64,000 nt of DNA from positions 33,102-97,101 of the IMG/VR virus record IMGVR_UViG_3300050514_000135; one strand, written 5' to 3'. Shown here one piece after another: positions 6,238 through 31,079 of the stretch. The stretch is from a virus. Taxonomy: Duplodnaviria; Caudoviricetes. The notes beneath the pieces were generated by a model, which searched no databases, was not told the origin of the DNA, and worked only from the letters and a program-made list of their open reading frames with translations. Both the position numbers and the translations under genes were made by a program. Numbering within the stretch: position 1 is the stretch's first letter; every line of letters starts with the position of its first letter.

Positions 6238-6594
6238 ATGACGGCCCGCGCCGCCGGCGTACTGCTCCGGGCCCGCTCGACGGGCCGCTACCTGTTCCTG
6301 CGCGAGGCGGACGGCACCTGGAACGTGCCCGGGGGCGGGATCGAGCCCGGGGAGGACGCCGAGGACGCGGCGCTGCGCGAGCTCGTGGAGGAGACCGGGT
6401 TCTACGGCACGCTCCGGATGAGCCGCGCCGCCTCGCATATCGGCGCGTACCGCCTCTACGTCGGCGAGGTCGAGAAGGAGTTCAAGCCCGAGCTCAGCGA
6501 CGAGCACGAGGCGTACGCCTGGACCAGACTCTGCGACGTGCCGCGGCCGCACCACCGCGGGCTCGATCGCTTCATCTGGCAGGCGTGCAATTAG
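6238..6594 (+). CDS. Nudix hydrolase
   Basis: Nudix box GGGIEPGEDAEDAALRELVEETG. Confidence 0.92.
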   Translation: MTARAAGVLLRARSTGRYLFLREADGTWNVPGGGIEPGEDAEDAALRELVEETGFYGTLRMSRAASHIGAYRLYVGEVEKEFKPELSDEHEAYAWTRLCDVPRPHHRGLDRFIWQACN

Positions 6595-7154
6595 CCCGGG
6601 ATCTCGATGATAGACACTTGCACGCTGCCGGACGAGATCACGCACGAGCCCGTGACGTCGGTGACGCGAACGTGGACGACATCCCCGCCTGGCGGGACCG
6701 TGTAGATGCAGTCCACGAAGCCGTCGTTGCTCGAAGCGTCTGTGCTCGTAGCGGGACGCATCACACCCTTGATGGAGTCGGCCTGGGGGATCGGGGTGAG
6801 GTTGTTGTCCACCCACCTGAAGTCGATCGAGTCGCCGACACCACCGAACCCGTCCGCGTGGCCGTGGAAGATCAGGTGGTAGGTCTTGCCGACCGTCAAC
6901 TGGAACGACTCGTTGTCGGGCTGAGTGATCCCGCGCGCGGCGGTTGCCGTGTCGAAGTGGAAGTTAGTCACACCGCCGATGTTTTGAGGGACGGTGTTCT
7001 TCGCCTCGTAATATTGCGGAGAGTCAGCGCCGCTCGACGTGAGTCCGTCGATCACGGCGGCGAGGTTGAGCACGAACTGCCCGATCGGGCTGCTGAGGCC
7101 GAACTGCGAGGCGACCGCCATCGCTCGGCTGTGAAGTTTGCTGGCCATCGTCAT
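6591..7154 (-). CDS. Putative virion protein, beta-sandwich C-terminus; paralog of 10861..11415
   Basis: Shared N-terminus SKLHxxAMxVASQFGLxSPIGQ; beta-rich C1q/BclA-like C-terminus. Confidence 0.65.
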   Translation of the reverse strand: MTMASKLHSRAMAVASQFGLSSPIGQFVLNLAAVIDGLTSSGADSPQYYEAKNTVPQNIGGVTNFHFDTATAARGITQPDNESFQLTVGKTYHLIFHGHADGFGGVGDSIDFRWVDNNLTPIPQADSIKGVMRPATSTDASSNDGFVDCIYTVPPGGDVVHVRVTDVTGSCVISSGSVQVSIIEIPG

Positions 7155-7158
7155 CTCC

Positions 7159-7785
7159 TCAGATCATGAACAGGTTGATCGGGTGCCCCTGCAGCGTCGC
7201 CGAGCCGTACTTCTGGCAATAGTCGGCGTGCAGGTCGTCGCGCCGGACGGGCGCGCTCGCGTCGTTCGCGTAGTACCAGAAGCTGCCGTCCTGCAGCACG
7301 ACGACGACGGCCTGGCCCGACGACAGCGCGTCGAGCTGCGCTTGCATCGCGGGCGGGAGCATCGCCTTCAGCTGGTTCGGCATGGGTGGGGTGCCGCCCG
7401 GAAACGCGGTCGGGACCTGGACAGCGACCACACCCGCGGTGAAGCCCCACTGCGTGAGCTTGACCTGGTCCACGGTGCACACGGCGGCAGGTGGGAGAGG
7501 CGGGGGCGTGGCGGTCGTCGTCGTGGACGCGGTCTTGTCCTTGTTCAGGTACCAGATCGCGGCTGCGCCGAGAGCGAGCGCTCCGAGCACCCAAGGCGCG
7601 GCGCTCGGGTTCGCCTGGAGCTTGCCCTCACGCGCGAGCGCGGCTCGCTTCGCGGAGGGCGACATCTTGTGGTACCAGAGCGCGCCGCAGACCGCGCCCG
7701 GGTTCTGCGCCGACTGTGACGCGCCGCGCACGCAGTCGCGCATCCACTTCTTCGGCGGTCTTCGCGGGTTGGTTTGCATCTTCAT
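7159..7785 (-). CDS. Membrane protein (NP tag, TM, HPxxxF C-terminal tag)
   Basis: MQTNP and LQANP, TM WVLGALALGAAAIWYL, ends LQGHPINLFMI. Confidence 0.75.
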   Translation of the reverse strand: MKMQTNPRRPPKKWMRDCVRGASQSAQNPGAVCGALWYHKMSPSAKRAALAREGKLQANPSAAPWVLGALALGAAAIWYLNKDKTASTTTTATPPPLPPAAVCTVDQVKLTQWGFTAGVVAVQVPTAFPGGTPPMPNQLKAMLPPAMQAQLDALSSGQAVVVVLQDGSFWYYANDASAPVRRDDLHADYCQKYGSATLQGHPINLFMI

Positions 7786-8483
7786 GGTCCGGGTCCAGAG
7801 TAAAAGTTTGGCTGTCGATGGAGCGTCGCGATCGTGTTCGCCTGGTAGTGACAGTCGGCCGTGAGCAGGTAGACCGTGTCCCCGTTGTCCGGATTGACGG
7901 GGTTGTTGGTGCGCTGCAGCGAGAGGAGCAGGATGCCGTCGGGCTCGAAGTTCGTCGGGTCGAGGGGGACGGGGATCTCGCTCGTCATGTGCCGGAAAGC
8001 TGAGCCAGGCGGCGCCTCGGTGGTGAAGACGGTCGTGCCCGTGAGGTCGTAGTTCTGCTGGTTGAAACCCTTCGCGTACGTCCAGGTGTAGCTCCAGGTG
8101 ACCTCGTTCGTTTCCGTGCCGTCCGTGAGCCAGTGCGCGTGCAGGAAGACCGGCGAGTTGAGCGCGTAGTCGTGCTGGAAGTGGTAGACGATGTCGACGC
8201 TCCGGCCGAGCGCGAAAGCGTACGCGCGAAACGCGCTGCCGCCGATGCTCTGTCGCGTCGGGTCACTGATGTCCGTGCCGGGCGTGTAGATCTGCCCGAC
8301 CATGTCCCTCCACCCGCCGTTCTGCGACGTGTAGAAGTTGATGTTGCCGAGCACGTTCAGGAGGCTGAGCGTCGTCGCCGCCGTTTCTTTTAGTCCCCTG
8401 CGCCAATTGCCCATCGCAGAGTGAAGCGACTTCTCGCCGCCGGAAGCTGAAAGCAAACCTAGAAGTCGACGTGTTGCTGACAT
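7782..8483 (-). CDS. Putative virion/spike protein with an SLHS N-terminal tag
   Basis: LLGLLSASGGEKSLHSAMGNW leader followed by a beta-rich domain. Confidence 0.65.
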   Translation of the reverse strand: MSATRRLLGLLSASGGEKSLHSAMGNWRRGLKETAATTLSLLNVLGNINFYTSQNGGWRDMVGQIYTPGTDISDPTRQSIGGSAFRAYAFALGRSVDIVYHFQHDYALNSPVFLHAHWLTDGTETNEVTWSYTWTYAKGFNQQNYDLTGTTVFTTEAPPGSAFRHMTSEIPVPLDPTNFEPDGILLLSLQRTNNPVNPDNGDTVYLLTADCHYQANTIATLHRQPNFYSGPGP

Positions 8484-8486
8484 GGA

Positions 8487-9074
8487 TCACACCATGAAGA
8501 AGTCGGCGGGGTGTCCGTTGAGAGCTGGCGTGCCCTTGGTCACGCTCGCGCCGACGAACTTCGCCAGCGCGGCGTTCTCGGCGTCGTCCGAGACCCACTT
8601 CGTGCCGTTCCACTTGTAGAAGCCGCAATCGACGGTCGAGAACGTGTGCGCGTTCTTGTTCGAGACGTAGTCGGCCTTCGGAGCGGGCCACTGCGCAACC
8701 GGTTGGGTCTTGTCCGGCGGCACGTACAGCTTGTACGTCGTGGGCTTCGACTTGACGTACGTCGTGAGCATCGCGTCCGTGATCGGGCACGGGAGAGCGC
8801 TCGGCGTCTCGGCCTTCGCCTCGGTGTCGCGCGACATCCACCACCAGATCCCGGCCGCGAGGAGACCTCCGCCAATGATCCACGGCAGCGCGCTCGGGTT
8901 CTCCTGGAGAGACTTGTTGCCAGCGATCTCGTCCGCGTACCTCTCGGCGTCCGCGTATCGATTGAAGACGCGCAGCACTTGGTTGTGCCACATGACGAAG
9001 TACGCCTGGTTCACGTTCGAGTAACGGATCGTGATCCCGTTCCCGACCTGCACGACACTTTGACGCCTCGCCAT
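8487..9074 (-). CDS. Membrane protein (small domain, LQENP, TM, HPADFFMV)
   Basis: ATG at 9074 (MARRQSVV); LQENP, TM WIIGGGLLAAGIWWWM, ends GHPADFFMV. Confidence 0.75.
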   Translation of the reverse strand: MARRQSVVQVGNGITIRYSNVNQAYFVMWHNQVLRVFNRYADAERYADEIAGNKSLQENPSALPWIIGGGLLAAGIWWWMSRDTEAKAETPSALPCPITDAMLTTYVKSKPTTYKLYVPPDKTQPVAQWPAPKADYVSNKNAHTFSTVDCGFYKWNGTKWVSDDAENAALAKFVGASVTKGTPALNGHPADFFMV

Positions 9075-9076
9075 CG

Positions 9077-9502
9077 TTACACCATGAAGAAGTCGGCTGG
9101 GTGACGCGCACCGGCGAGCGACTTCACGTAAGCGCAGTACTGGTTCATCAGGTTCGGACTCTTGACCGGCGCGCTGTTCTTGTCCTTGTAGTACCAGAAC
9201 TCGCCGTTTCCGAGCACCAGCACGTACGGCCTGCCGAACGGGAGGTCGGCCGGCGCGAGCTTGGTGGTGACGAGGAACTCGTAGGTCGAGGGGAACGGCA
9301 GCGTGATGTTCGTGGTGTTGCCGGCGAGCTGCTTCTCGACGAGCCACGCCTCGAACTTCGTCTTGTCGATGGGTAGGCAGCTGCCAGGCAGGGGTTGGAT
9401 CGGCTCAGCGCTGGAGCTCGCGCCCTTGCTCGTTCCTGACAGCAGCCACCACGCGCCCAGTACGCCAGCGCCGACCGCCCACGGGACCCAGTTGGTCGCC
9501 AT
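9077..9502 (-). CDS. Membrane protein, paralog of 7159..7785
   Basis: ATG at 9502; N-terminal TM; VLVLGNGEFWYY..SAPV shared with 7159..7785; ends HPADFFMV. Confidence 0.75.
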   Translation of the reverse strand: MATNWVPWAVGAGVLGAWWLLSGTSKGASSSAEPIQPLPGSCLPIDKTKFEAWLVEKQLAGNTTNITLPFPSTYEFLVTTKLAPADLPFGRPYVLVLGNGEFWYYKDKNSAPVKSPNLMNQYCAYVKSLAGARHPADFFMV

Positions 9503-10857
9503 TACGGTTGGTTCACTCCCCAGCGCTCCTTGTTCGGAGAGCTGTAGGCCCAGATCCCGGTCTGTCGAAAAACTTTTTCGGCCTTGTCCACGGTGTGCTC
9601 CAGTGCCGTTCCCCGAGCATACCCCAGTTGGCCGTACTGCACCGTGCCCTCGCTGACCCTGTACCCATCTGGGTTGATTAGTTCCCAAGTGGCGTGCTTG
9701 TGGACACGAAGCGTGAACACGCGCCCCGGGTCGTCTGCAGAGCCGTACTTGATGAGCGCGGTCTTGTTCCCGTTCGTGAAGGTGACCGTGTACGCGAGCG
9801 GGTTCTGCTGCAGGGAGAGGCCGGACGCTGCCTTGGGCGCGCCGACGACGATGCCCCCGACCACGACCGCGGCGACGCCCGCGAGCGCGACAGCGCCCCA
9901 CGGGAAGCCTGAGCTCTCGGTCGATCCCAAGCCAGGACTTGGTGTCGCTGTCGAGATCCCCGAGCTCGGCAGCGGCGCCGCCTCGTTCGTGCTCATGTAG
10001 TCCGCCGGCAGGACCACGCCTTTGGCGCACGACGCGCCGAGCGTGAAGAAGTCAGCCGGGTGGGGGGCGCCCGCTATGAAACAGGACGCCCCCGGCGCTT
10101 TTGGGTCCATCGCGTTCCACCTCTCCGCGAGGACCGCCGCGAGCAGCACGGGCAGCATGCGCGAGCCCTGGTAGATGTGGTCAGCGTAGCCCTGCGGGTC
10201 GAGGTCGGTGCAGCCGACCATGATGAGTCCGCCGCGCCGGCGCTTCGCCTTCCACGGCGGGGCCGGGTAGTCGATCGAGTAAGGCGTCGTCGCCGGCGGC
10301 ACGCCCACGTGCACCGACGTCGCCGGCACGTTGATCTCGGGCACCGGTGTGTCGGCTGCATAGGCTTCGGTGTTGCTCGTGAGCTTCTCCCAGAGCCAGT
10401 TCGCGGTCTCGGTCGTGCTCGCGTAGGGCGGGACCACGCTCGAGTACGAGTCGAGGAACAGGCGCTCGTTGTTTGCGGCGAGCGCCGCGAAGTCGAGCCA
10501 CGGCTTCATCCCGGCCGGGTTCAAGACGTGCTTGACCTTGTCGAGGTAGCCGACGTGGATCCCGTCGACGGCGACGACCGCGTCGACGCGCCCGCCGTCG
10601 CTCGACGAGAGCACCTGCGCGACGCCCTGGCAGCTCGCGCTGAACCCGAGCAGCCCGACTCGCAGCGGCGTCACGCCCGGCGCGTACTTCGCGATCATCG
10701 CTCGCACGCCGCCCCCGTACGGCGCGAGCGACTGCGCCCACGAGTCGGGGTTCGGCAGGTTGACGAACTTCGTCGGGCGCTTGAAGGCGGACTTCACCTG
10801 GTTCACGGGTATGCCGCCGTGATTCCAGGCGATCAGGACGTCCGCCTCCTCGGCCAC
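9502..10857 (-). CDS. Membrane-anchored alpha/beta-hydrolase-fold protein with a C-terminal extra domain
   Basis: GFSAS nucleophile elbow, VAVDGIH, DHIYQ; internal HPADFF; TM then LQQNP and ~95 aa domain. Confidence 0.65.
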   Translation of the reverse strand: MAEEADVLIAWNHGGIPVNQVKSAFKRPTKFVNLPNPDSWAQSLAPYGGGVRAMIAKYAPGVTPLRVGLLGFSASCQGVAQVLSSSDGGRVDAVVAVDGIHVGYLDKVKHVLNPAGMKPWLDFAALAANNERLFLDSYSSVVPPYASTTETANWLWEKLTSNTEAYAADTPVPEINVPATSVHVGVPPATTPYSIDYPAPPWKAKRRRGGLIMVGCTDLDPQGYADHIYQGSRMLPVLLAAVLAERWNAMDPKAPGASCFIAGAPHPADFFTLGASCAKGVVLPADYMSTNEAAPLPSSGISTATPSPGLGSTESSGFPWGAVALAGVAAVVVGGIVVGAPKAASGLSLQQNPLAYTVTFTNGNKTALIKYGSADDPGRVFTLRVHKHATWELINPDGYRVSEGTVQYGQLGYARGTALEHTVDKAEKVFRQTGIWAYSSPNKERWGVNQP

Positions 10858-10860
10858 GGC

Positions 10861-11415
10861 TCACACTTCCTGCACGAGCGCGTACGAGAGCCCGCCGAGC
10901 GCGTCGGCCGTGCCGGTGGCGCCGGTCACGCGGAGCTTCACCGTCTGGTTGACGCTGGGCGTGTGGAAGGTCTCGGCAGTCGGCTGGAAGTTCTCGTTGT
11001 TCGTGTTGGTGACCGGCGTGAGGAACGCGCCGTGATCGGCGTGCAGCACGGCGTTCGTGTTCGCGTCCACCCACTCGATCCCGATATTGGTCGTCTCGCC
11101 CGTGTAGTTCGCGAGCGTGAAGTGCGCGGTGAGCCGGTAGTTCTTGTTCCCCGTGAGAGTGAACACGCCGTTCAGCGGGTTGTACGGGATGTCGCCGTAA
11201 CCGGGCGTGTCCATCACGATGTCGGTGTTGGCGGCGAGCGACTGCCCACCACCGGCCGAGTATGAGGTCTGCACGTAGTCCTTGGCGACCGCCTGCGACG
11301 GGTGCGAGGACTGCTGCGAGACGCCGAGGATCCACTGCCCGATCGGGCTGCCGAGACCAAACTGCGAGGCGACCTGCATCGCCAGACCATGGAGTTTAGA
11401 ACGAGCCATGCTCAC
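10861..11415 (-). CDS. Putative virion protein, C1q/BclA-like beta domain; paralog of 6591..7154
   Basis: Shared N-terminal ~30 aa; NGVFTLTGNKNYRLTA beta pattern. Confidence 0.65.
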   Translation of the reverse strand: MSMARSKLHGLAMQVASQFGLGSPIGQWILGVSQQSSHPSQAVAKDYVQTSYSAGGGQSLAANTDIVMDTPGYGDIPYNPLNGVFTLTGNKNYRLTAHFTLANYTGETTNIGIEWVDANTNAVLHADHGAFLTPVTNTNNENFQPTAETFHTPSVNQTVKLRVTGATGTADALGGLSYALVQEV

Positions 11416-11786
11416 GCCTTCGCTTCGATGTTGGCTGCAGCAGCTGCTGCCGCCGCCTCTTTCTCGATCCGCACGTCCTCGTCGAGCTTCTTGTCGATGG
11501 CGCGCGCGGCGAGCTGGGTCCTGACGGCTACGACGACCGATACAGCGAACCAGATCAGGAGCATCGCCAGGAACGCTGCCTTGGGCGCGTGAGCGCCGGG
11601 CACGAAGCCGGAGAGGGCGAAGCCCGCGGCGAAGACGAGCAGGCGCTCGGCGGTCTTCCGAGCGTTCGTGTGCCGGTCCATGAGCTTGAACTGCTTCTTC
11701 CAGTCAGGCTCGTAGTCGTCGGGCGGGAGCATGTCTCGGAACTGCTCCTTCTCTTTGCCTTGCAATCCTTTTTGTTCGATGGCCAT
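11412..11786 (-). CDS. Two-TM membrane protein
   Basis: Two hydrophobic helices; AAGGAA RBS. Confidence 0.65.
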   Translation of the reverse strand: MAIEQKGLQGKEKEQFRDMLPPDDYEPDWKKQFKLMDRHTNARKTAERLLVFAAGFALSGFVPGAHAPKAAFLAMLLIWFAVSVVVAVRTQLAARAIDKKLDEDVRIEKEAAAAAAAANIEAKA

Positions 11787-11795
11787 CTCGTTCCT

Positions 11796-12095: not shown

Positions 12096-12928
12096 CAGTA
12101 TCCGTAAAAGAATATGTAGTCGACTTGGCAATTGGCGTTCGACTTCGGGCCGAGCACAGCCGTCGGGCGCAGGTTCGTTGTGTTCAGTGGCAGCGTCAGC
12201 GTGATGTCGCCATCGAAGAGCGTGGTTCCGTTGCTGATGTCGAGAACCTGGACGTGAACCTTGGTGTCGTTGGGCAGCGCATACATGCGAACCTCCATCA
12301 CGCGAGGCCCGCCAGTGGTCGGGTCACCGATGATCGCGTTCGCCTTACTGATCACTGCCGCGCTCTTGGTCGCCGTCGCCGCATTGTCTGTTGAGATGAT
12401 CGTTAGGTCGGTATCGCCCGTGCTCGCTCCGAGAACGATTCGATTGCCGGTGGCAGCAGGATCGGCGCCGCCGCCGATAACCGCGTTGTTGGTTCCGATC
12501 GAAACGACCGCGTCTGCCGTCAGTGCGACGATCGCCAAACGATGGCAGAAGAAAAACCCTCCGACTCCTGCCACCGCTCCGCGGCACATTCCTGGGTCGG
12601 TGAAGTTGTGCCCGACAAGCACGTTGGCCGTGCTGGTCGTCGTGTTCACGCGCGATGAAGCGGTGCGGAGATCCGCGTTCGTCAACGCTGGGGTATTCGA
12701 ACCGGAAAGAGTGTTGCTGACGATCGCGAGATTGCTGATAGTGCCGCCCGCCGCGCTCGTCGGCGCGATATAACGAAAAGTTCTACCCTTCAGCGCCGTC
12801 GCGACGGCTGCCGGCAGCGCGGCAAAGTCGGGAACGTTCGCGCCGATGGTCGCCCCGGTGATGGTGACAGCGTTGCCCGCTACTAGTGAGCGCTCGCCGA
12901 CAGCGTCGTCGTGTACGGTGATGGGCAT
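12092..12928 (-). CDS. Putative spike/receptor-binding protein, lectin-like beta domain
   Basis: Thr/Ala/Gly/Asn-rich and beta-rich; ends VDYIFFYGYW; lies in the spike block. Confidence 0.6.
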   Translation of the reverse strand: MPITVHDDAVGERSLVAGNAVTITGATIGANVPDFAALPAAVATALKGRTFRYIAPTSAAGGTISNLAIVSNTLSGSNTPALTNADLRTASSRVNTTTSTANVLVGHNFTDPGMCRGAVAGVGGFFFCHRLAIVALTADAVVSIGTNNAVIGGGADPAATGNRIVLGASTGDTDLTIISTDNAATATKSAAVISKANAIIGDPTTGGPRVMEVRMYALPNDTKVHVQVLDISNGTTLFDGDITLTLPLNTTNLRPTAVLGPKSNANCQVDYIFFYGYW

Positions 12929-14223
12929 TAGGAGAACAATCCGATCGAGGCGCCGTTGTTGGCGTTCAGGATAGAGCTCTGCGGGGCGGCGACGATGGTC
13001 GCCCAGGTCACGGCTGCGGTCCCGCCGATGATCGCGTCAGACGCGCCCGTGATGGTCGGTGTGGCGTTGAACGTGAGCTTTCCTCCCGACCGCGTGCGGA
13101 CTCCGGTTCCACCGCTTCCCGTGCCCCAGAGTAGATCGTTGCCACTCAAGAAAGCATCGCACCTCACCTCGCCGTCCTCGACGAGTACGGCATCGCTCGT
13201 GGCGTCGAACACTGCCGCAGTACCGACGCGGGCGACGCCACCGTAGCGACAGCGCCAGCCGTTGTTGCCAGACTGCGAAAACAGCGTGTCGTAATCGAGG
13301 AAGGCGACCGTGCCGTTTTGAAAGGTCGGGCGAGACCGACATAGGCAGCCGAAGTAGGCCACGGTGCTGCCCGGGGCGGCGTGGATGACGCCCGTGTCGA
13401 TGAAGCACTCACACATGACCGCGCTCACGGGACAGTGGACGCGGCAGCCGTAGAAGAGCGGCGAGTTGGTGACCGTCGCGAGCGGCAGGACCGAGACGCA
13501 CACGTCGGCTTGCGTAAGGTACAAGTCCGACACGACGATCTGAGTACCGTTCGTGGTGAGCGCTCCGCCGAACTGAGCGGACAGGTTGTTGATCGCGAGG
13601 TACCCGATCTGAGTGAGGCTCTCGATCACGAACGTGTTACCCGCGGCGGCCGCGGCGGCGGTCGGGTTTCCAGGGATGGGGCTCGCGGCGAGGTTCACGC
13701 TGCCCCACGGGCTCGTGCGGTACACTCCGCCCCCGCCGTCCTTGTCGAGCCAGGCGAGCGCCCCCACGGTGCCACTCGTCAGTCGAACGCGTTGACCGGT
13801 GCGACCGGCTCCCATGCCGGCCTCGGTGACCGAGCTCGGCGTGTTCGTCGCGCGGTTCAAGGCCGTGACGGCGGAGAACCCGCCGCCGGGAGACGTATAG
13901 GTCGTCGTGGCGACGCCCTTGATTCGGAGGCAACCGGCGGAGCCGAGCGTGAACGTGAAGATGCACGGGTCGGTCGATGGCACGTCGGTCAAGTACGTGA
14001 CGGTCGTGTCCCCGACGATGTTCCAGACCACGCCCACGCGGCGCTGGCGCTCGGCGTCGGTCTTCAGCGCGGTGCCGGAGGTGAGGCCGGTGTTCGTGTC
14101 GAGTCCTGCGACCGGGTCGATGAACCACGCGGTCTGCGTCGAGGACGCGCCCGTGAGCGGTGCCACGCCCACCGAGACATTGAGATTCGCGTTCGGGGAG
14201 AGGATGACTTGCGGAGTCGTCAT
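12928..14223 (-). CDS. Spike/tailspike-like beta-helix protein (paralog 1)
   Basis: WFIDPVAGLDTNTG..ALKT..E..RR motif typical of the start of pectin-lyase-like folds. Confidence 0.7.
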   Translation of the reverse strand: MTTPQVILSPNANLNVSVGVAPLTGASSTQTAWFIDPVAGLDTNTGLTSGTALKTDAERQRRVGVVWNIVGDTTVTYLTDVPSTDPCIFTFTLGSAGCLRIKGVATTTYTSPGGGFSAVTALNRATNTPSSVTEAGMGAGRTGQRVRLTSGTVGALAWLDKDGGGGVYRTSPWGSVNLAASPIPGNPTAAAAAAGNTFVIESLTQIGYLAINNLSAQFGGALTTNGTQIVVSDLYLTQADVCVSVLPLATVTNSPLFYGCRVHCPVSAVMCECFIDTGVIHAAPGSTVAYFGCLCRSRPTFQNGTVAFLDYDTLFSQSGNNGWRCRYGGVARVGTAAVFDATSDAVLVEDGEVRCDAFLSGNDLLWGTGSGGTGVRTRSGGKLTFNATPTITGASDAIIGGTAAVTWATIVAAPQSSILNANNGASIGLFS

Positions 14224-15485
14224 GAGCGCAACCCCGCCATCGCTCCGTTATTGAGATTCCACATCGAGCTCTGAGCGGCGGCCGCGACCGTTGCCCACGT
14301 CACCGCCGCGGCTCCACCGAGCACGACGTCGCCGCCGGTCGATGTGATCGTCGGTTGGTTACCAGCGCTGTTCCAGGAGATGCCTCCCCTCGATCGCACC
14401 TGCACCGCGCCGCCGGTGTTCGTGTTGTTTAGACCCCAAAGAATCGCGGTATTGTCCATCTGCGCGAGGACGTCGATCACGACGTTGAACGAACCAACAC
14501 CGGTCCGGTCGAAACTACCGACGGCAGCTTGGACAGAAACGAACGCACCCAAGTTCGCCTGTATCTGCGCGTTCTGTAGGAACGACGGGGCTACTGCAAA
14601 GATGATGCGTCCCTGGTTAGCCAAGACTGTCGCGAAAGCCGCATGGCCGGAGATAATGAGAGTGGCTAGACCGCTCGACAGTGTGGCCACGTTAGAACAG
14701 CCGTTCAGACGTGGGTTACTGCCAATAACGAAACCCAGTTGCTGAGTCTGCATGCGACAGCCGGTCACCAAGAACTGGCTCGCTGATCCTGGGCACTGCG
14801 CGAAGGACAAGCGTCCGCCGGGGGCGTCCGCCTCAATCGCTAAGTTTTCTACCGATCCCACCCCGTTGAACAGCAGGCAATCGATCCCCGCTATGCGGGT
14901 GCCAAGGGTCTCGATAGCGAACGTGTCATTGACGGCCGGAGAGACGGCGGCCAGCGTCGTCGGGCTGATGAATTGAGACACACGCGCGGTGTTCGCCCCG
15001 AGATCAGCCAGAACCCACGCGAAGGCGCCGGAGTTGGCCCCGCTCGTGAGTCGCACGCGCCGCTGAACGTGAGCAGCCCAGACAATAGGAGTAGTCGTGT
15101 CCGCCAGTCGCGCGTCTTGACTGGTCGCCGCGTTCGTCGCCGTGAACGCAGTGACGACGCCGGTCGCTTGCAGTGTCGGAGTACCGGTCCAATTGATTCG
15201 CTGGTTCGAGACGTCGACGAGAGCGTCGATGAACTGAGTTGGAAAGTCCCCGGTCAACGCGACGCTGATCGTGCCGATTCCTGGCGCGAAGGATCGACCG
15301 TTCCACCGCCGAGCAAGTTCGGCCAAGGTCAATAGAGGGGAAGCGGCCGTACCGACGTTGTTGTCGTTGCCAGTCGTACTGCTCACTCCCCAATCGATCT
15401 GCGTGAGGTAACCCTCGTCCGTTCCCACGCCTGTCACCACGGCGAGGTTGGTGTTCGGAGAGAGAAGAACTTGTCCCGTCGTCAT
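14220..15485 (-). CDS. Spike/tailspike-like beta-helix protein (paralog 2)
   Basis: WGVSSTTGNDNNVGTAASPLLTLAELARR; both termini similar to 12928..14223. Confidence 0.7.
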   Translation of the reverse strand: MTTGQVLLSPNTNLAVVTGVGTDEGYLTQIDWGVSSTTGNDNNVGTAASPLLTLAELARRWNGRSFAPGIGTISVALTGDFPTQFIDALVDVSNQRINWTGTPTLQATGVVTAFTATNAATSQDARLADTTTPIVWAAHVQRRVRLTSGANSGAFAWVLADLGANTARVSQFISPTTLAAVSPAVNDTFAIETLGTRIAGIDCLLFNGVGSVENLAIEADAPGGRLSFAQCPGSASQFLVTGCRMQTQQLGFVIGSNPRLNGCSNVATLSSGLATLIISGHAAFATVLANQGRIIFAVAPSFLQNAQIQANLGAFVSVQAAVGSFDRTGVGSFNVVIDVLAQMDNTAILWGLNNTNTGGAVQVRSRGGISWNSAGNQPTITSTGGDVVLGGAAAVTWATVAAAAQSSMWNLNNGAMAGLRS

Positions 15486-15486
15486 C

Positions 15487-17163
15487 TCACTGCCTCACGT
15501 TGATGAAGGCATTGTTGGGAGGCGCGGCCACTGCCGGTGCAGTCGCCCAGTCAATGGCGGCGGCGCCGGCGAGTACGACGTCGAGTCCTGGTGTAGCGCC
15601 GGTCGCCGTGGGCTTGGTCACGTACATGACACCGCAGCCGTTGCGCACGCGGAGCGCGTTCGTCACCGTATTCCCTGCCGCGCCGTAGAAGATCGCTCCG
15701 CTAGTCGACATGACCCACATTGCGAAGTCTTCCACTCGCATCAGTTCGGTGAGGAAGCCGTTGACCACACCGAAGCACGCCCGCGGGTTGATGTCCTCGA
15801 GCGAGGAGCCGTTGCCCAGCAAGAAGGCCGCGTTGTTGACCCCGTTACCGTCCTGCAACCATCGATTGCTGATGATGTCCGCACCCTCGAGCGTCTGCAT
15901 CTCGGTGCACTGGCAGACGCCCTGGCAGAAGAAGTTACCCTTCCCGAAGGAGAAGGAGCTGCCGCCGATGACCTGGACGCCGTTCAGGTTGAACGTGCCC
16001 TCGACGATGTGCGTGCCGCCCGCGACTTGGATGAACTGAGCGCCGAAGACCTGGGCGACCGAAGCACGACCGCCGAGCATGTAGGAGTGCGGGATGATCG
16101 TGTTCGCGGCGGAGCCGATCGAGACGTCGCGCAGTCGGTAGATACAGTTCCCGAGAATTTGAACGTTGAAAGCTTGGAGCTGCGTGTCGAAAGTCTCTAT
16201 TACGTAGCTGTCTCCGATGGCCGGGTTGACGTTAGATACCGAGCCGGCAAAGACGACCGGTGCGATGAGTTGGAAGGTCCCGACGTTCGCGGTGGTCGCC
16301 CCGGGACTCGAGGTGATGAAGGTCACAGCGCCAGCGTTCGTGCCGCTGGTCATGCGGATGCGGCGATTGACGTGTGGGCCGAAGTTCTGCGCGGCGTCGA
16401 CGAGTTGCGTTCGAGTACCGGTCGCGGCGTTCTCGGCGGTGTAACCGGTGATTGTACCGGCGCCCACCTGGGTCATCGTGCCCTGGATATTCATCTGGCC
16501 GCCGCCGGTGAACGCAGTTCCCGCGCACGACCAGTTCGCGAAGAGCACGAGGTCCTGAGTCGGGAAAGTCCCGGCGAGCGTGACCGTGATCGACGTGAGA
16601 GCGGGCGAGAAAGTCCTGCCCATGAACCGGCGATTCAATTCGCCGATCGTCAAGAGTGGCGTGAGCGCCGTCGAGCCGTCGTTCGCGTCGTTGCCCGTCG
16701 CCGAGTTCACGAACCACGCGGCCTGCGTTAGGAACGGTAGCGTGAAGTCACGCACCCACGCCGCGCCGGTCCAGACCAGGATGTCGCCCGCGAAGAGGCC
16801 GGGCGGGAGCCCGCCACCAGGCGCGCCTTGAACAGTCGGCACCCACGTCGCGCCGTTCCAGACGAGCGTGTCGCCGACCGCTGGTGGCAGCGCGTTCGGC
16901 ACCCACGCACTCACGCCATCCCAGACCAGGATGTCGCCGAGCTCGACACCAGGAGGTAAGACGCCACCGGGCAGCGCGATCGGGATCCACTTCGTGCCGT
17001 TCCAGACAAGAGTGTTGCCAGGCGCTGGCGGGACCGCGTTCGCGACCCACGCCGAGCCGTCCCAGAACAAGATGTCGCCGATGTCGATCCCGAGCGGGAG
17101 GACGCCACCGGGGCCTCCGCCGCCGCCGGGCGAGTACGGGGTCTTGTCCCAGAAGTTCCTCAT
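15487..17163 (-). CDS. Spike/fibre protein with N-terminal GD(I/T)LxWxGxxW repeats (paralog 3)
   Basis: Five G[DN][IT]L[FV]W[DNT]G..W repeats, then WFVNSATGNDANDGSTALTPLLTIGELNRR. Confidence 0.72.
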   Translation of the reverse strand: MRNFWDKTPYSPGGGGGPGGVLPLGIDIGDILFWDGSAWVANAVPPAPGNTLVWNGTKWIPIALPGGVLPPGVELGDILVWDGVSAWVPNALPPAVGDTLVWNGATWVPTVQGAPGGGLPPGLFAGDILVWTGAAWVRDFTLPFLTQAAWFVNSATGNDANDGSTALTPLLTIGELNRRFMGRTFSPALTSITVTLAGTFPTQDLVLFANWSCAGTAFTGGGQMNIQGTMTQVGAGTITGYTAENAATGTRTQLVDAAQNFGPHVNRRIRMTSGTNAGAVTFITSSPGATTANVGTFQLIAPVVFAGSVSNVNPAIGDSYVIETFDTQLQAFNVQILGNCIYRLRDVSIGSAANTIIPHSYMLGGRASVAQVFGAQFIQVAGGTHIVEGTFNLNGVQVIGGSSFSFGKGNFFCQGVCQCTEMQTLEGADIISNRWLQDGNGVNNAAFLLGNGSSLEDINPRACFGVVNGFLTELMRVEDFAMWVMSTSGAIFYGAAGNTVTNALRVRNGCGVMYVTKPTATGATPGLDVVLAGAAAIDWATAPAVAAPPNNAFINVRQ

Positions 17164-18596
17164 GTCGTGCTCGCCACGATCCGCGAGAGGTTCAGAGCAT
17201 CCGTGTACGGGATCGCGGCGTAGAGCTTGTCAGTGCCTCCCACGTGCGTGTCCGAGACGGCACCCGTGAGCTCGGGCTTGTTCGCGCCGTAGTACACGCC
17301 GCCGCCGTTGTGCACGTCGATGCCGTAGGACACGGGCGCGATGAACGCCGCGGTCTGCCACATGCGCCCGGTGAAGCGGTAGAAGGCCATATCGCCGATG
17401 TCCACGCCGCCCGAGCCGCCGACCGTGATGAAACCGTGGTTCGTGACCGTCGCCTGCGCGCCGCCGGTCATCTGGAAGCCGCCCGCGCGGTTGACGACGC
17501 GGTCCATGGTCGCCCAGCAGCCGGCCTGTAGGATCGGCGTGCACGACTGGAACGCGGGCCCTCCCATTCGGTAGACGCCCGTCGAGAACGTCGGCACGCC
17601 GGACACCCACATGCAGCCGAGGAAGTCCGCGTTCGAGTCCTGGAAAGACGCCTGACCCACGTTGAACGGGAATTGGACACCGAAGAAGGTCAGGCGACCG
17701 AGCGACGAGGCGTTGGTCGCCACTCCGCCCTTGGCGGTCATCGGCTTGTCGACCTGCGGAACGATCGCCAGGTCGCGGATCACGACGTCGCCCGAGCCCA
17801 CGTTCTCGACGTCGATCCAGCCGAGCTGCGTCGCGGTCACGTCCTCGATGAACTCGGTGTCGCCGGGGTTCAGCACCGTGTCGGTGTTGAAGATGTCCGT
17901 GAAGTAGCTCGTGGTCGCGGTCGTCGCCGAGGGGAAGGCGAGCAGCCAGCCTACGGCGCCGGTCGCGCTGTCGCGCACGCGCTGGTTCGGGAACGTGTTC
18001 AGGACGCCGGGCGTGGTGTCGAGCACCGCGGCCGTGTGCGCGGTCTCGTCGTACGGCGTGAAAGCGGAGACCGTGCGCGTTGCGGAAGCGCTGGGCGTGC
18101 CCACGATCGTGGTCGTCGTGTTCGGCGCGGGCGCGAGGCGCACGTGCAGGTCCTGGAGCGAGAAGTCACCCTCGAGCGTGATGGTCGTGTCCTGCAGGAT
18201 CGACCTGTCGTTCAGACGGCACGCGAGCTCGGTCACGGTCAGGAGCGCCGTGGCGGGTGTGAAGCCGTCGTTGATGTCGCTGCCGGTCACGGCGTTGACG
18301 AACCACGTGGCCTGCAGCACGTAAGCGTTGACGCCGCACAGGCTCGCGGAGCCTCCCCCGGGGATCGTGACGTCGACCCGCCCCGGTCCCACGGCGGCCG
18401 AGACCCCGGCGCCGACGAAGTTCACGGTCGTGAACGACCCGATCGGCGCGCCCTGGTTCAGGAAGGCGAGCGTGTTGCCCGCGGAAGCGACGAAGTCGTC
18501 GACCTTCTGCGAGATAGCGAGGCGCCACGCGCCCAGTTTGCCGTGGAGCGATCTCTCGCTCGCGGCTGCTTTCAGGAGTGAGAGGATCCTGCCCAT
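17160..18596 (-). CDS. Spike-like beta-helix protein with an SLH N-terminal tag (paralog 4)
   Basis: LSLLKAAASERSLHGKLGAW leader; TTVNFVGAGV; WFVNAVTGSDINDG..LLTVTEL. Confidence 0.7.
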   Translation of the reverse strand: MGRILSLLKAAASERSLHGKLGAWRLAISQKVDDFVASAGNTLAFLNQGAPIGSFTTVNFVGAGVSAAVGPGRVDVTIPGGGSASLCGVNAYVLQATWFVNAVTGSDINDGFTPATALLTVTELACRLNDRSILQDTTITLEGDFSLQDLHVRLAPAPNTTTTIVGTPSASATRTVSAFTPYDETAHTAAVLDTTPGVLNTFPNQRVRDSATGAVGWLLAFPSATTATTSYFTDIFNTDTVLNPGDTEFIEDVTATQLGWIDVENVGSGDVVIRDLAIVPQVDKPMTAKGGVATNASSLGRLTFFGVQFPFNVGQASFQDSNADFLGCMWVSGVPTFSTGVYRMGGPAFQSCTPILQAGCWATMDRVVNRAGGFQMTGGAQATVTNHGFITVGGSGGVDIGDMAFYRFTGRMWQTAAFIAPVSYGIDVHNGGGVYYGANKPELTGAVSDTHVGGTDKLYAAIPYTDALNLSRIVASTT

Positions 18597-27382: not shown

Positions 27383-27383
27383 C

Positions 27384-27635
27384 CTAGTCCGCCTCGCTCC
27401 AGTCCTCGGCGAGTACGTCCGTCTGCGACGCGAGCCACGGGACGAACTCGTTCTGAGCAGTCTTCATAACGATGAACGGCGCCCTCGCGACATCGAAGTT
27501 CTCCGTCTCTTCGGAACTCCAGCCCGCTGTCACGTACATCAGCCACATACCCTTGCCGTTCCAACCGTTGCGCTCGACGCGCTTGCCCTCGCGCAATCGC
27601 TTGAGCGCCTCGCCGAAGTCAAATTCTTCTTTCAT
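27384..27635 (-). CDS. tad2: DUF2829 / Tad2-like anti-defence nucleotide sponge
   Basis: FGEAL..L..G..V.R.GWNGKGM ... MKTAQN..VPWLASQTDVLAEDW, the hallmark DUF2829 sequence. Confidence 0.85.
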   Translation of the reverse strand: MKEEFDFGEALKRLREGKRVERNGWNGKGMWLMYVTAGWSSEETENFDVARAPFIVMKTAQNEFVPWLASQTDVLAEDWSEAD

Positions 27636-27647
27636 CGTCTTCCTCCT

Positions 27648-27836
27648 TCAGAGTTGAACCGAGTCCTGCACGAACCTCTTTGCCACCCCGTACTTGCGAT
27701 TGCCCCGCGTCATGTTCTTAGCGCCGTACAGAGGTTCGAGCCGGAACACTTCGCGGATCAAGTCGATGAACCGGCGCGCGTCGCGGTGCTTCTCCCTGTC
27801 TGCCTTCTCCCACTTCCTGGCTCGCGGCTTCCCCAC
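27648..27836 (-). CDS. Small basic hypothetical protein
   Basis: Fills the gap between groES and tad2 on the same strand. Confidence 0.45.
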   Translation of the reverse strand: MGKPRARKWEKADREKHRDARRFIDLIREVFRLEPLYGAKNMTRGNRKYGVAKRFVQDSVQL

Positions 27837-27839
27837 GGC

Positions 27840-28130
27840 TCAGTCCTCGATCACCAGGAGCACGTCTTCCTCGAGCACTGCGAGCAGCTCGCGGCCGTCG
27901 AGCTTGAGCTCGTTGCCCGCCCACTTGCCGAACATGACGCGGTCGCCCGGCTTCACGCACGGCTCGCGGAGCTTCCCGTTGTCGAACGTCTTGCCGCGTC
28001 CGACGGCGACGACCACGCCCTCGATCGGCTTCTCCTTCGCTATGTCCGGGATGATGATCCCGCCAGAAGTCTTGTCCTCGTTCTTCACGCGCTCGATGAG
28101 CACGCGGTCGTGCAGTGGTCTCAGGTTCAT
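27840..28130 (-). CDS. groES: Co-chaperonin GroES
   Basis: MNLRPLHDRVL...KTSGGIIIPD.AKEKP..G.VVAVG.G...VKPGDRV.FGKWAG.E. Confidence 0.95.
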   Translation of the reverse strand: MNLRPLHDRVLIERVKNEDKTSGGIIIPDIAKEKPIEGVVVAVGRGKTFDNGKLREPCVKPGDRVMFGKWAGNELKLDGRELLAVLEEDVLLVIED

Positions 28131-28143
28131 GTCGCTCTTCCTT

Positions 28144-28596
28144 TCAGTGCAGGTGGTTCTCCGACGCGGGGTGCGCCGGGCAGTGGTCGAGGTGGTGCGC
28201 GCACGCGGCCGAGCAGGCCAGCTCGAACTTCGAGCTGATCAGCCACTCGTGCGGGACGCTCGTCCAAGAAGTGGACCTCTTCGGGACGCTCACGCGATCC
28301 TTCAGGCCGCAGACGTTGCAGTACACGTCCACGCGGTCGTACTTCCGGTTGATGAAGTCGGCGAGCCAGTCGCCGACGGTGAACCGGACGACCACGAGCA
28401 GCGGCCACGCGAGCATGCCGAGCGTCATGACCAGGTAGTTCGTGCCCCGCGACGCCCAGCGCAGCGGCCAGCGCATGCCCTTCGTCAGGTGGATCGTCCG
28501 GCGGAGACCGGCCTGGATCTCCACCGTGTTCGAGGCTGCCGCGGTGAAGCCGACCACGCCGCCGAGCCAAGCCCAGAAGAGCGCCTCGCGGATCAC
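28144..28596 (-). CDS. Membrane protein with C-terminal Cys cluster
   Basis: Two TMs; CNVC...CSAAC. Confidence 0.55.
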   Translation of the reverse strand: MIREALFWAWLGGVVGFTAAASNTVEIQAGLRRTIHLTKGMRWPLRWASRGTNYLVMTLGMLAWPLLVVVRFTVGDWLADFINRKYDRVDVYCNVCGLKDRVSVPKRSTSWTSVPHEWLISSKFELACSAACAHHLDHCPAHPASENHLH

Positions 28597-28952
28597 GACT
28601 TCTGCTCCTTGAGCTTCTTGCGTGCCTGGCGCGCGCTGGCCGCGATCACGGCGTACCCGATCCGGTTCACGCCCTCCGCCGCGAGCCCGCCGGCGATGGC
28701 CTTCGCGCGCTCGGGGTTCTTCTTCACGAAGTCGCCGATCTTGCCGACGCCCTCCAGGAAGCGCTCGACGCTGACGACGGCACGCTCAGGGTCGCGCTCG
28801 ACTACCTCGAGCGTCTTGTCGGCGAAGTCGACGGCGCGGCCGATGCCGCGCGCGATCAGGAGTTCCAGCTCGCTCGGCTCGCGCTTTGGTTTCTCCGGCG
28901 TCGGCTTGCGACGCACGCTCTGCCCGTTCTTCTTTCGCTTGGGCTTCTTCAC
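28593..28952 (-). CDS. Hypothetical protein
   Basis: GTGA-coupled to the HTH gene. Confidence 0.6.
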   Translation of the reverse strand: MKKPKRKKNGQSVRRKPTPEKPKREPSELELLIARGIGRAVDFADKTLEVVERDPERAVVSVERFLEGVGKIGDFVKKNPERAKAIAGGLAAEGVNRIGYAVIAASARQARKKLKEQKS

Positions 28953-29116
28953 GCGTGAATCCTCAACTTCAACTGCTGCGCCGCCATCTTGATGCGCTCG
29001 ACGACCGACGCTCGCACTTTCTCACCGGCCACGTACTTGCGGACGGTGCGGACGTCGACCAGCGACTCGGCGGCGACGCGCCGGATCTCGATCTCGGTCC
29101 ACTTCTCGGTCGACAT
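28949..29116 (-). CDS. 55-aa LacI/Cro-type HTH regulator (missing from the ORF track)
   Basis: Manual translation MSTEKWTEIEIRRVAAESLVDVRTVRKYVAGEKVRASVVERIKMAAQQLKLRIHA; stop overlaps the next GTG. Confidence 0.7.
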   Translation of the reverse strand: MSTEKWTEIEIRRVAAESLVDVRTVRKYVAGEKVRASVVERIKMAAQQLKLRIHA

Positions 29117-29154
29117 CTGTGCGCAGTATGTGCAATATGCGCACAGATTGTCAA
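29115..29154 (-). promoter_or_regulatory. Sigma70 promoter overlapped by a palindromic operator
   Basis: TTGACA (29154-29149), 18 bp, CATACT (29130-29125), 8 bp, ATG; inverted repeat ATCTGTGCGCA at 29115-29125 and TGCGCACAGAT at 29138-29148. Confidence 0.8.
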
Positions 29155-29213
29155 CGACGGTGTGGAATCCAGCGACGGTTGCCGCGAAAACTGCTCGGGG
29201 CTACCGTGCCGCG

Positions 29214-29957
29214 ATGAGATACCTGCTCTTCCTCTTCGTCTTCTTGCTCGCGTGGCCCGCGGCCGCGACCCCGCTCAGCCGGGCCCTGTTCGTGGTCGCC
29301 CAGGCGCTCCCCGCGCCGTACGCGCCCCCGGACAAGGCCGAGACGGCCGCCGTGGAGCGCGCCGCGTTCCTGGGCAAGCTCGCCGGCGGGCTCGCCAGCG
29401 CGGCCCAGGAGGCCACCTGCGAGGGGGACTACGCCGCCGACTCCGAGTGCCGGCGCAAGTGGCCGGGGCCGGCCGAGGAGGTCGCCGCGTTCGCCCTGAC
29501 GCTCGGGTGGTTCGAGTCCAAGCTCGACCCGGAGGTGCAGGCCGGCCGGTGCGCCGTGTGGGGTCCGGCGCCGTCGCAGATCGGCTGCGACGGGCAGCTC
29601 TTCCGGTCCGGGTACGCGCCCCCGGCGCTGGTCGGCGTCGAGCGCAGGACCAAGTGGGGCCTCGTCGTGTTCACGTCGAACACGGTCTTCCAGGTGAAGG
29701 TCGCGACCAACGAGCGCGTCCGCGAGATAGTCGGCGACGGCGAGATGCACGTGTTCGAGGCGAGCCGCGAGGCGGTCAAGATCATCAGCTCGAGTCGCGG
29801 CAACTGCCGCGCGGCAGCGAGCTGGCCCGAGTGCGTGGCGACGTCCTACGCGGGGTCGTCGACGTTCAAGCAGGCACCGATCCGCGCCGCGATGTTCCGC
29901 AAGGTCCTGCCGAAGGTGCGGGCGGCGATGAGGGACCCCGATGCCCCCTCCGCGTGA
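29214..29957 (+). CDS. Secreted Cys-rich protein, possible lysozyme-like fold
   Basis: Signal peptide MRYLLFLFVFLLAWPAAA; WFESKLDP resembles a transglycosylase Glu motif; TACCGT -10 box 6 bp upstream. Confidence 0.55.
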   Translation: MRYLLFLFVFLLAWPAAATPLSRALFVVAQALPAPYAPPDKAETAAVERAAFLGKLAGGLASAAQEATCEGDYAADSECRRKWPGPAEEVAAFALTLGWFESKLDPEVQAGRCAVWGPAPSQIGCDGQLFRSGYAPPALVGVERRTKWGLVVFTSNTVFQVKVATNERVREIVGDGEMHVFEASREAVKIISSSRGNCRAAASWPECVATSYAGSSTFKQAPIRAAMFRKVLPKVRAAMRDPDAPSA

Positions 29958-30056
29958 CGACCGGTTCCGCGACGTGCTGCTCAACGAGGGCTGCACGGTC
30001 GCGGGCATCGTCCTCCTGGCGTTCGCGATCTCGCTCATGCTGTCGCTGACGATACT

Positions 30057-30611
30057 GTGGTGGCGATCGTGATCGAGATCTCCCGCCGGTCCTTCCTGCT
30101 CGGCACGGCGTCGCTGATCCCTAGTCGGGGAGTCGCCGCGCCGCCGGTCGACGGGACCGTGCTCATCGGCGACAGCCACGCCTACATGATGAACCGCGCC
30201 TTCCATGATGTCGCGCACGCCTACGACAGGCGCGTCGCGGTGGTCGCGCACGGCGGGTCGAGCGTGCGGCAGTGGCTCGTCAAGAAGTGGGTGCAGCGAG
30301 AGGTGCTCGCGAAGTACCCGGACGCGACGCTGCTCCTGGTCTCGCTCGGCACGAACTGCACGCGCTCGGAGCGACCGCGCCTCGCGGACGACATCCGGCG
30401 CCTGGTGTCCGAGAGCGGCGTGAGCGTGTCGTGGCTCCTGCCCCCGCCGATGAAGTTCGACACGACGTACCTGCGCGACGCCGTCAAGCAAGTCACCGGC
30501 GTCTTCCCGATCGACCCAGGACCTCTCCCGATGCTGCGCGACAAGATCCACGCGACGCCGAAGGGCTACTACATGTGGGCGCAGACGATCGCCGACACGC
30601 TCTGGTCGTGA
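30057..30611 (+). CDS. SGNH/GDSL hydrolase with a Tat-like signal
   Basis: SRRSFL; IGDSHA, G, LGTN, DKIH blocks. Confidence 0.8.
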   Translation: MVAIVIEISRRSFLLGTASLIPSRGVAAPPVDGTVLIGDSHAYMMNRAFHDVAHAYDRRVAVVAHGGSSVRQWLVKKWVQREVLAKYPDATLLLVSLGTNCTRSERPRLADDIRRLVSESGVSVSWLLPPPMKFDTTYLRDAVKQVTGVFPIDPGPLPMLRDKIHATPKGYYMWAQTIADTLWS

Positions 30612-30612
30612 C

Positions 30613-30783
30613 TCACGTCAAAGGGCGAGCCCAGAACACGCCGGCGTCGTCGACCGCGACCTCGTACTTCTTCTGCTCGTGATTCACGAAGCCCAGCCAG
30701 CGCACCTTCCCTGTCGGGCGCTGGGGTTCATCGGGGCCCGGCTCGTGCGGGCCCTCGTGACTGCCGTTACCGTAGAGCAGCAC
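30613..30783 (-). CDS. 56-aa hypothetical protein containing VRWLG (missing from the ORF track)
   Basis: Manual translation from the GTG just after the 30786 stop: MLLYGNG...GKVRWLGFVNHEQKKYEVAVDDAGVFWARPLT. Confidence 0.45.
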   Translation of the reverse strand: MLLYGNGSHEGPHEPGPDEPQRPTGKVRWLGFVNHEQKKYEVAVDDAGVFWARPLT

Positions 30784-30785
30784 GA

Positions 30786-31079
30786 TCAGGTCGGCGTGTA
30801 GAACGCGCCGAGCGCCGAGCGGAGACTCTGCTCGCCGTCGACCGTGCGGAACTCGCCCGTGTCGGTCCCGAGCGCGGCGGTGCGTGTGATGAAGCGCCCG
30901 ACCTTGGAGTGGAGCGACTGCTGACCACCGACGGACATCGCCGAGGAGTGGAGCGCGGCGGCGTCGGGCAGGAGGTGCGTGTCGAGCAGCGCGGCGCGCA
31001 TGTAGTGGCGACCGAGCGGCGAGTGGAGCGAGATCTCGCCACCGGCCGCTTTCAGGAGACTGAGGTGCTTGCTAGCCAT
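30786..31079 (-). CDS. Small protein made of GGExSLHSxLG repeats
   Basis: GGEISLHSPLGRHY / GGQQSLHSKVGRF / DGEQSLRSALGAFY; TAGACT -10 box upstream. Confidence 0.7.
   Translation of the reverse strand: MASKHLSLLKAAGGEISLHSPLGRHYMRAALLDTHLLPDAAALHSSAMSVGGQQSLHSKVGRFITRTAALGTDTGEFRTVDGEQSLRSALGAFYTPT

Follow-up and report, generated by a model that had tools for sequence, protein, structure and literature searches.

The five genes considered here lie in a 64,000-nucleotide stretch of virus DNA (the window, meaning the whole stretch that was analyzed) taken from IMG/VR record IMGVR_UViG_3300050514_000135; the record is 97,101 bp long and the window comprises its bases 33102-97101. Coordinates are those of the window unless a locus is named, and L-numbers denote related or compared metagenome loci or contigs. 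All five open reading frames (ORFs), P0001 (30786-31079), P0002 (7782-8483), P0003 (17160-18596), P0004 (6591-7154) and P0005 (10861-11415), lie on the minus strand and present a coding-type GC content at third codon positions (GC3) of 0.84-0.92. They share a genuine ~26-aa unit that is N-terminal, is conserved in relatives and stands before unrelated cargo, and that also exists in stand-alone and fused three-unit forms.

The original prediction, made from the sequence alone, described a GGExSLHSxLG module common to P0001 and to the N-termini of spike proteins. The regular expression E.SL[HR][SG].[LMVI]G occurs four times in the six frames of the 97-kb genome, twice in P0001 and once each at the N-terminus of P0002 and P0003. 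A 26-aa hidden Markov model (HMM) of the unit was made from the ~100-aa three-repeat family only (68 units; family consensus LLDLLKAAGGEVSLSSPLGRFLQRLS), leaving out the spike proteins of the window, and was run on 2637 six-frame ORF segments drawn from the genome and the first related loci. The model recovers the N-termini of P0003 (E 3.5e-6), P0004 (E 3.2e-4) and P0002 (E 4e-3) and, weakly, that of P0005 (E 0.94). Besides these four, its matches are three-repeat genes and a propeller fusion in L003, the sole comparable match outside the family being a chance match in L006 (E 0.89). The six-frame ORF segments of the rest of the viral genome gave no score better than E 2.5, and at E<1 nothing matched in a control set of 37 unrelated phage loci (374 kb; 5176 ORF segments). 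Chance or low complexity as the source of the repeat was rejected on the basis of the pattern count, the HMM and the unrelated-phage control, and the common module is borne out by the HMM and its controls.

A distant orthologue of P0004 and P0005 in an 86-kb relative (L007:7667-8254) carries a canonical unit, MATAIEVLKAATSQLQLSSPLGRWAQKVS, with an HMM E-value of 2.8e-10. The SKLH..SPIGQ(F/W) start of P0004 and P0005 is therefore a diverged copy of the unit, in agreement with the relationship that had been proposed for it. As judged from sequence, four or more fibre or spike proteins of this virus begin with the unit, and it is strictly N-terminal wherever it stands before cargo. Single units are mostly closest to the first unit of the three-unit proteins, and those of P0004 and P0005 are closest to the second.

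P0001 (97 aa, minus strand, GC3 0.90), which would be the docking module without cargo, has an AAGGAG 13 nt before its ATG and holds exactly three units, at about aa 5-30, 43-68 and 73-97. Unit 1 (30990-31067) scores 44.2 bits with the unit HMM (domain E 1.1e-12) and unit 2 (30876-30953) scores 33.9 bits, with further support from the family alignment (A5); unit 3 (30789-30863), the most diverged, scores 10.9 bits over the loop and aligns with the third unit of the family. The ALHSSAM sequence, originally read as a partial copy, does belong to the repeat, but it is no extra fragment: it is the first helix of unit 2. Orthologues of P0001 are 75, 68 and 51% identical to it, and the ratio of non-synonymous to synonymous substitution rates (dN/dS) against the closest one is 0.35; by sequence comparison, P0001 is a conserved gene under purifying selection. 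The P0001 gene and the N-terminal units are kept across divergent relatives, contrary to the lack of conservation that would have refuted the original prediction.

The P0001 family was collected in two rounds: a profile was searched exhaustively against 1.84 billion representatives, and a 15-member alignment then served for a word-based search. It consists of ~30 clusters of 94-130-aa proteins, nearly all of them three-unit, all metagenomic and none named. Two further candidates from the exhaustive search, the TPR/NB-ARC-like protein P0020 and the 1711-aa protein P0027, which has GDxSLNSKL repeats, were discarded on inspection as repeat-driven false positives. The 31 family members matched no Pfam or PHROG family, and their profile found no PDB sequence. 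Tandem paralogues of the three-unit gene are present in three relatives (L001 3002-3286, L004 9671-9991 and L047 10328-10642).

To describe the fold of P0001, we used AlphaFold2 (AF2). A model computed with 5 sequences was rejected as unusable, with a predicted local distance difference test score (pLDDT) of 50. The model computed with a 31-sequence alignment reached a pLDDT of 74.9 and a predicted TM-score (pTM) of 0.63 and shows six helices (4-12, 21-33, 40-50, 59-70, 77-80 and 89-94) arranged as three helix-loop-helix units, with the GG(E/Q)xSLxSPxG stretch as a loop. According to this model, each ~26-aa unit consists of two helices joined by a conserved loop, the GGExSLHSxLG stretch, and the three units of one chain are predicted to form a compact ~95-aa six-helix domain. 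The model matches no known fold: Foldseek against the PDB and BFVD (E>2.6) and an exhaustive VIA-align search returned background helical matches, of which the best VIA-align row was the CAP N-terminal six-helix domain (Z 4.7), with a designed single-chain six-helix barrel (Z 4.2) and TPR domains (Z about 4) among the further rows. The predicted arrangement of three helix-loop-helix units resembles TPR-like helical hairpin repeats and single-chain six-helix bundles, but the scores are such as helical proteins in general would give and fall below the level regarded as meaningful for them, the sequences are unrelated, and those folds lack a counterpart to the conserved Gly/Ser/Pro loop of the unit.

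Conservation of the unit spans ~17 positions on both sides of the GG|E/Q junction and is strongest in the Gly/Ser/Pro-rich loop rather than in the helices. Position 9 is Gly in 46 of the 68 units, position 10 is Gly in 50 and position 11 is Gln or Glu in 64, values that are partly fixed by the pattern with which the units were harvested. Adenovirus and African swine fever virus proteases cut GG|X sites, and the junction could accordingly be read as a maturation-protease site, in which case cleavage would release three peptides from the 97-aa protein, acting as a small polyprotein, and remove a leader of 12-17 aa from the spikes. We consider this very improbable, given that the junction reads A-S-E in P0003, A-S-Q in P0004 and P0005 and T-S-Q in L007, that conservation on both sides of it is what a folded unit would present, and that AF2 folds the whole of P0001 as one domain.

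The loop continues with Ser at position 16 in 62 of the 68 units and Pro at position 17 in 42, and in every contig seen the three-unit gene has a conserved neighbourhood, lying, in two gene orders, beside a cluster of glycosyltransferases, methyltransferases and sugar-nucleotide enzymes. Both observations would suit a glycosylation handle, whereby the near-invariant loop Ser (often Ser-Pro) is O-glycosylated and the three-unit protein is a glycan-bearing surface protein. This explanation appears highly unlikely to us: these genomes are collinear overall, from which the adjacency to the glycan cluster cannot be told apart; the unit fits no known sequon; and the glycan genes might just as well act on DNA or on the surface of the host.

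Directly upstream of the three-unit gene, in the window (31090-31386, minus strand), L001 (2690-2986) and L005 (9699-9986), lies a gene for a 95-98-aa protein with two CXXC..G motifs, which has a weak Pfam match to the DnaJ central zinc-finger domain (E 0.0028). The protein's CXXC..CXXC motifs are of the DnaJ zinc-finger type, and its presence in the window, L001/L002 and L005 lends some weight to a reading of the unit as an assembly or chaperone-recognition tag and not the final anchor. Such a tag would nucleate trimerization or be recognized by a virus chaperone in the course of folding or delivery, with the three-unit protein as regulator or decoy of that step. In L006 and L048, which are more distant, the three-unit gene lacks this zinc-finger neighbour, however, and a six-helix domain that folds and is maintained as a core gene is more in keeping with a structural part than with a transient tag, so that we hold this reading to be unlikely. 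In L006, the gene directly upstream of the three-unit gene (9480-9962) encodes a 160-aa protein that begins MSKLTDVARAAATGSISNTSKLFQWMVQTSEAVD; this start may be a strongly diverged unit, judging by its sequence, and the unit profile gave no match to the protein.

The cargo of P0004 and P0005 was assigned through a structural model. Both proteins consist of a unit, a short linker and a knob. In P0005, the single N-terminal unit (11317-11394) is the most diverged of all (E 0.94), its L007 orthologue being canonical at the same place, and the cargo (10861-11316) is a C1q/TNF/BclA-C-like knob. The ESM Atlas model of P0005 (pLDDT 0.73) superposes on BclA_C, C1q and collagen-C1q clusters with TM-scores of 0.62-0.73 (0.65/0.82 for the BclA_C cluster and 0.62-0.66 for the C1q and collagen-C1q clusters), and no Pfam C1q match was found in its sequence. 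P0004 is a paralogue (alignment A6), with a diverged single unit at 7059-7136 that fits a unit-2 profile better than a unit-1 profile (16.5 vs 10.3 bits) and a cargo (6591-7058) to which the C1q/TNF-like knob fold is assigned by homology to P0005. Its likely start is the second ATG, at 7148, which has a GAGGAG 6 nt upstream and gives MASK... as in P0001.

P0005-type knobs were found at 37 metagenome loci of 32-47% GC, within long tail-fibre-like ORFs, several of them with collagen-like repeats. The matches run from query residue ~26-76 to the end of P0005 and never over the unit, and the unit HMM found no unit at any of the 37 loci, one of which carries PHROG tail-fibre families. The occurrence of the knob at unrelated loci that lack the unit indicates that the cargo is a mobile fibre-tip domain and that the unit is specific to this lineage. 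Among cultured phages, a search with P0005 returned one hypothetical protein of a Pseudaeromonas myovirus, and searches with P0002 and P0003 returned nothing. The knob-bearing fibre-like proteins lie on low-GC metagenome contigs of up to 297 kb (L012, L015, L026, L032, L035, L040, L041 and others), several of them with collagen-like Gly-X-Y runs; in L012, L015 and L026 the knob is near the N-terminus and not at the tip.

P0002 carries its single N-terminal unit at aa 7-32 (8388-8465; E 4e-3), a stretch to which the N-terminus of the L048 spike is 45% identical over 40 aa (BLASTP), and its cargo extends over 7782-8387. This gene, P0004 and P0005 belong to a minus-strand region (6591-11786) in which unit-bearing genes alternate with membrane-protein genes, the spikes themselves lacking a membrane segment, and the structural block of the genome (about 31000-52000) is rich in C-terminally membrane-anchored proteins. 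These arrangements would be compatible with the unit being an amphipathic helical hairpin that anchors spikes straight to a viral lipid membrane. Such an anchor is quite unlikely, since the loop and not the helices is most conserved, P0001 is weakly charged and without a hydrophobic stretch, AF2 predicts a compact soluble bundle, and the virion membrane is itself only inferred.

Candidate partners of the unit are the membrane proteins whose genes alternate with the unit-bearing ones in region 6591-11786. Their membrane segment is preceded by LQxNP, two of these proteins have HP(A/I)(D/N)(F/L)FM(V/I) at the C-terminus, and the corresponding run of small membrane proteins in L007 ends in (S/A)(M/L)FMV.

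P0003 combines a single N-terminal unit (aa 4-29; 18510-18587; E 3.5e-6) with a long spike body (17160-18509). The body is paralogous to three further proteins of the window (12928-14223, 14220-15485 and 15487-17163), to which it is 25-31% identical (alignment A7) and with which it shares the motif W-F-V-x-x-x-x-G-x-D-x-N-x-G. Its paralogy and sequence character suggest a beta-helix-like cargo; P0003 and its paralogues gave no Pfam, PHROG or PDB match. The unit is kept on the orthologous spikes of two divergent relatives (L048 4295-5860, E 4.5e-5; L006 3743-5287), and it is more conserved than the spike body: between P0003 and the L048 spike, 17 of the first 35 residues are identical (~49%, by hand count) vs 27% overall (BLASTP). 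An adjoining paralogue of the spike there has a shortened unit. Within the window, the paralogue at 15487-17163 (minus strand) starts with three tandem ~40-aa repeats (GDIL.WDG..WV.N..PP...GxTLVWNG) instead of the unit, and those at 12928-14223 and 14220-15485 have a third type of N-terminus, MTTxQV(I/L)LSPN(A/T)NL.

Three units precede cargo in P0013 (650 aa) and P0021 (668 aa), two proteins from two relatives in which the units are followed by a ~550-aa domain with four Asp-box-like motifs. P0013 is 47% identical to P0001 over 100% of the latter. The large domain resembles a BNR propeller at sub-threshold scores (Pfam BNR 20.5 bits, cut-off 27; BNR_2 17.8 bits, cut-off 31.4), and a sequence search of the PDB gave no match for it. 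P0013 adjoins a 100-aa gene that occupies the usual position of the stand-alone three-unit gene and thus looks like a duplicate that gained cargo.

The virus itself has a GC content of ~66%. The first 3,726 bases of the record recur at its end in near-identical, not exactly identical, form (window 60275-64000, corresponding to genome 93376-97101, vs genome 1-3726), and this end repeat, which is either a terminal redundancy or a circular-assembly overlap, leaves a unique genome of ~93.4 kb and explains why PolA and ThyX are each present twice in the record. Genes recognizable with Pfam include an integrase, PolA, ThyX, a UvrD-type helicase and a PD-(D/E)XK nuclease, the cell-wall enzymes SLT, M15, SGNH and a PG-binding protein, and a sugar cluster of GDP-mannose dehydratase-type enzymes and glycosyltransferases. 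Pfam and PHROG scans of the large ORFs tested matched none of them to a capsid, portal, terminase or tail family and detected no HK97-type capsid gene. A 403-aa capsid candidate (43750-44961) returned nothing in an ESM Atlas look-up and noise in a PDB sequence search, and the product of 42144-43025 likewise gave noise only in the PDB sequence search. The structural block at about 31000-52000 is rich in proteins with membrane segments. Relatives are 84-92-kb contigs from metagenomes, including JGI 3300006845; scans of IMG/VR with P0001, P0003 and a 534-aa protein returned no relatives, and a scan of species genomes with alignment A8 gave no match and so pointed to no prophage copy or host. This virus looks like a member of an undescribed lineage of ~85-93-kb soil viruses without recognizable capsid genes.

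The sugar genes of the relatives present some variation. In L004 (6740-9004), an epimerase/GDP-mannose-dehydratase-type gene encodes 754 aa and has a LAGLIDADG_3 match between two Epimerase matches, which suggests an inserted intein or homing endonuclease. Some relatives (L047 6162-7658 and the contig of P0039) have several methyltransferases together with a B12-binding radical-SAM enzyme in their glycan clusters, gene content that points to heavily modified sugars.

To interpret the unit, we considered its copy number against the type of cargo that it precedes. A single unit stands before cargo of fold classes that usually form trimers, and three units stand before a propeller or before nothing, suggesting that the working body is the three-unit, six-helix domain. 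The cargo domains look, from their sequence and predicted folds, like host-recognition parts. The original prediction had cast the module as an adaptor for interchangeable receptor-binding domains, and this remains the best-supported reading: a conserved N-terminal module before unrelated, host-recognition-like cargo speaks for it, and the attachment step, argued from sequence, keeps it unproven at the level of binding. Specifically, we propose that the unit is a lineage-specific virion-docking (anchor) domain, present once per chain on presumably trimeric spikes and three times per chain on a propeller or without cargo, a proposal to which we would give an even chance of being right. Trimerization of the cargo, the equivalence of three single units with one triple unit and binding to the particle are all inferred.

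Under this docking proposal, the knobs of P0004 and P0005 and the spike of P0003 would be expected to trimerize, each chain contributing one unit at its extreme N-terminus, so that the three chains of a trimeric spike would bring three units together. The BNR-like propeller of the relatives would carry all three in its own chain, and the 97-aa P0001 would be the same three-unit module without cargo. All forms would thereby present one and the same three-unit six-helix body to one kind of particle site, a common site that would let the virus mount different host-recognition heads, and the cargo-less protein would fill or share a spike site, as P31 does with P5 in PRD1/PR772.

The precedent for such an arrangement comes from these tectiviruses, in which the tip of the P5 spike is a TNF-like knob and the pentons sit at the fivefold vertices of a double-jelly-roll capsid that encloses a membrane. 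In PR772/PRD1, the trimeric spike P5 has an N-terminal base to which P31 (126 aa) is homologous; the two share the penton, which contains 3 P5 and 2 P31, and P31 can replace P5, yielding particles that are intact and non-infectious (PMC6750898); the PDB includes an entry for PR772, 6Q5U (PMC6750898). The likeness lies in a cargo-less protein homologous to spike N-termini and in one spike class with a C1q/TNF-like knob, and the parallel is one of organization, with the HMM of the stand-alone family finding spike N-termini at E 3.5e-6 to 4e-3. There is, however, no sequence relation (the family profile gave no match in the PDB or PHROGs), and the base of P31 and P5 is a jelly roll, whereas AF2 predicts an all-helical hairpin repeat here. 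Furthermore, a spike chain has one unit here where the stand-alone protein has three, and the module is used with four or more different types of cargo.

Two other systems offer partial parallels. The N-terminal tail of the adenovirus fibre, with its FNPVYPY motif, binds the penton base, and there too, knobs that are interchangeable dock to a single capsid site by way of a short, conserved stretch at the N-terminus of the trimeric fibre. That tail is a linear peptide of different sequence and without a stand-alone paralogue, in contrast to the folded helix-loop-helix and three-copy free form predicted here. Tailed phages with several receptor-binding proteins likewise place anchors at their N-termini, as in T7 gp17, the head-binding domain of the P22 tailspike and the branched tailspikes of CBA120 or G7C. 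These share with the unit a lineage-conserved N-terminal anchor before swappable receptor-binding or depolymerase domains, and the P0005-type knob occurs in tailed-phage fibres too. Yet neither P0001-P0005 nor the 31 family members matched curated Pfam or PHROG tail-fibre or tailspike anchor families, the scans of large ORFs described above detected no tail, portal, terminase or HK97-type capsid gene in this virus, and to our knowledge a cargo-less three-copy form is not a feature of tailed-phage anchor systems.

Several observations weigh against a docking role. The Pfam and PHROG scans of large ORFs, together with the Atlas and PDB searches described above, identified no capsid or vertex protein and no binding partner in this virus, and the AF2 model of P0001 is of moderate confidence. 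For the cargo of P0002, searches of Pfam, PHROGs, the PDB and phage proteins returned nothing, and it has no assigned fold. Of the four beta-helix-like paralogues in the window, just one bears the unit and the other three begin differently, so that docking has other solutions besides it. Within a genome, residue 15 of the unit (His/Ser) in the three-unit protein shows no co-variation with that in the spikes. Finally, trimerization of the cargo is argued by analogy of fold, and BNR propellers on phages can be trimeric too, which would break the arithmetic of three units per site.

A more specific version of the docking proposal holds that one class of docking site takes the three-unit body either as three single units or as one triple unit, and that P0001 is a single-chain mimic of the spike base whose competition for sites tunes spike composition and host range. 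We regard this version as tentative and, on balance, doubtful. According to it, new spikes would arise by way of forms such as the tandem duplicates in L001, L004 and L047 and the propeller fusion, and in a bolder variant the conserved Ser-Pro loop would be a handle decorated by the adjacent virus-encoded glycan pathway.

Taken together, these analyses describe the unit as an undescribed protein family in an undescribed virus lineage, with an organizing principle that has precedent. The 26-aa profile provides a sequence handle for the host-recognition proteins of a lineage whose structural genes no library recognizes, and, since the docking partner should be a surface-exposed structural protein, it may also open a route to the capsid or vertex proteins of these viruses. 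Building the same docking body from one chain or from three would be a form of modular spike construction not described so far. If the cargo-less protein does compete for sites, it would represent a second, independently evolved case of the tectivirus P31/P5 principle and would give the virus a simple genetic knob for spike occupancy.

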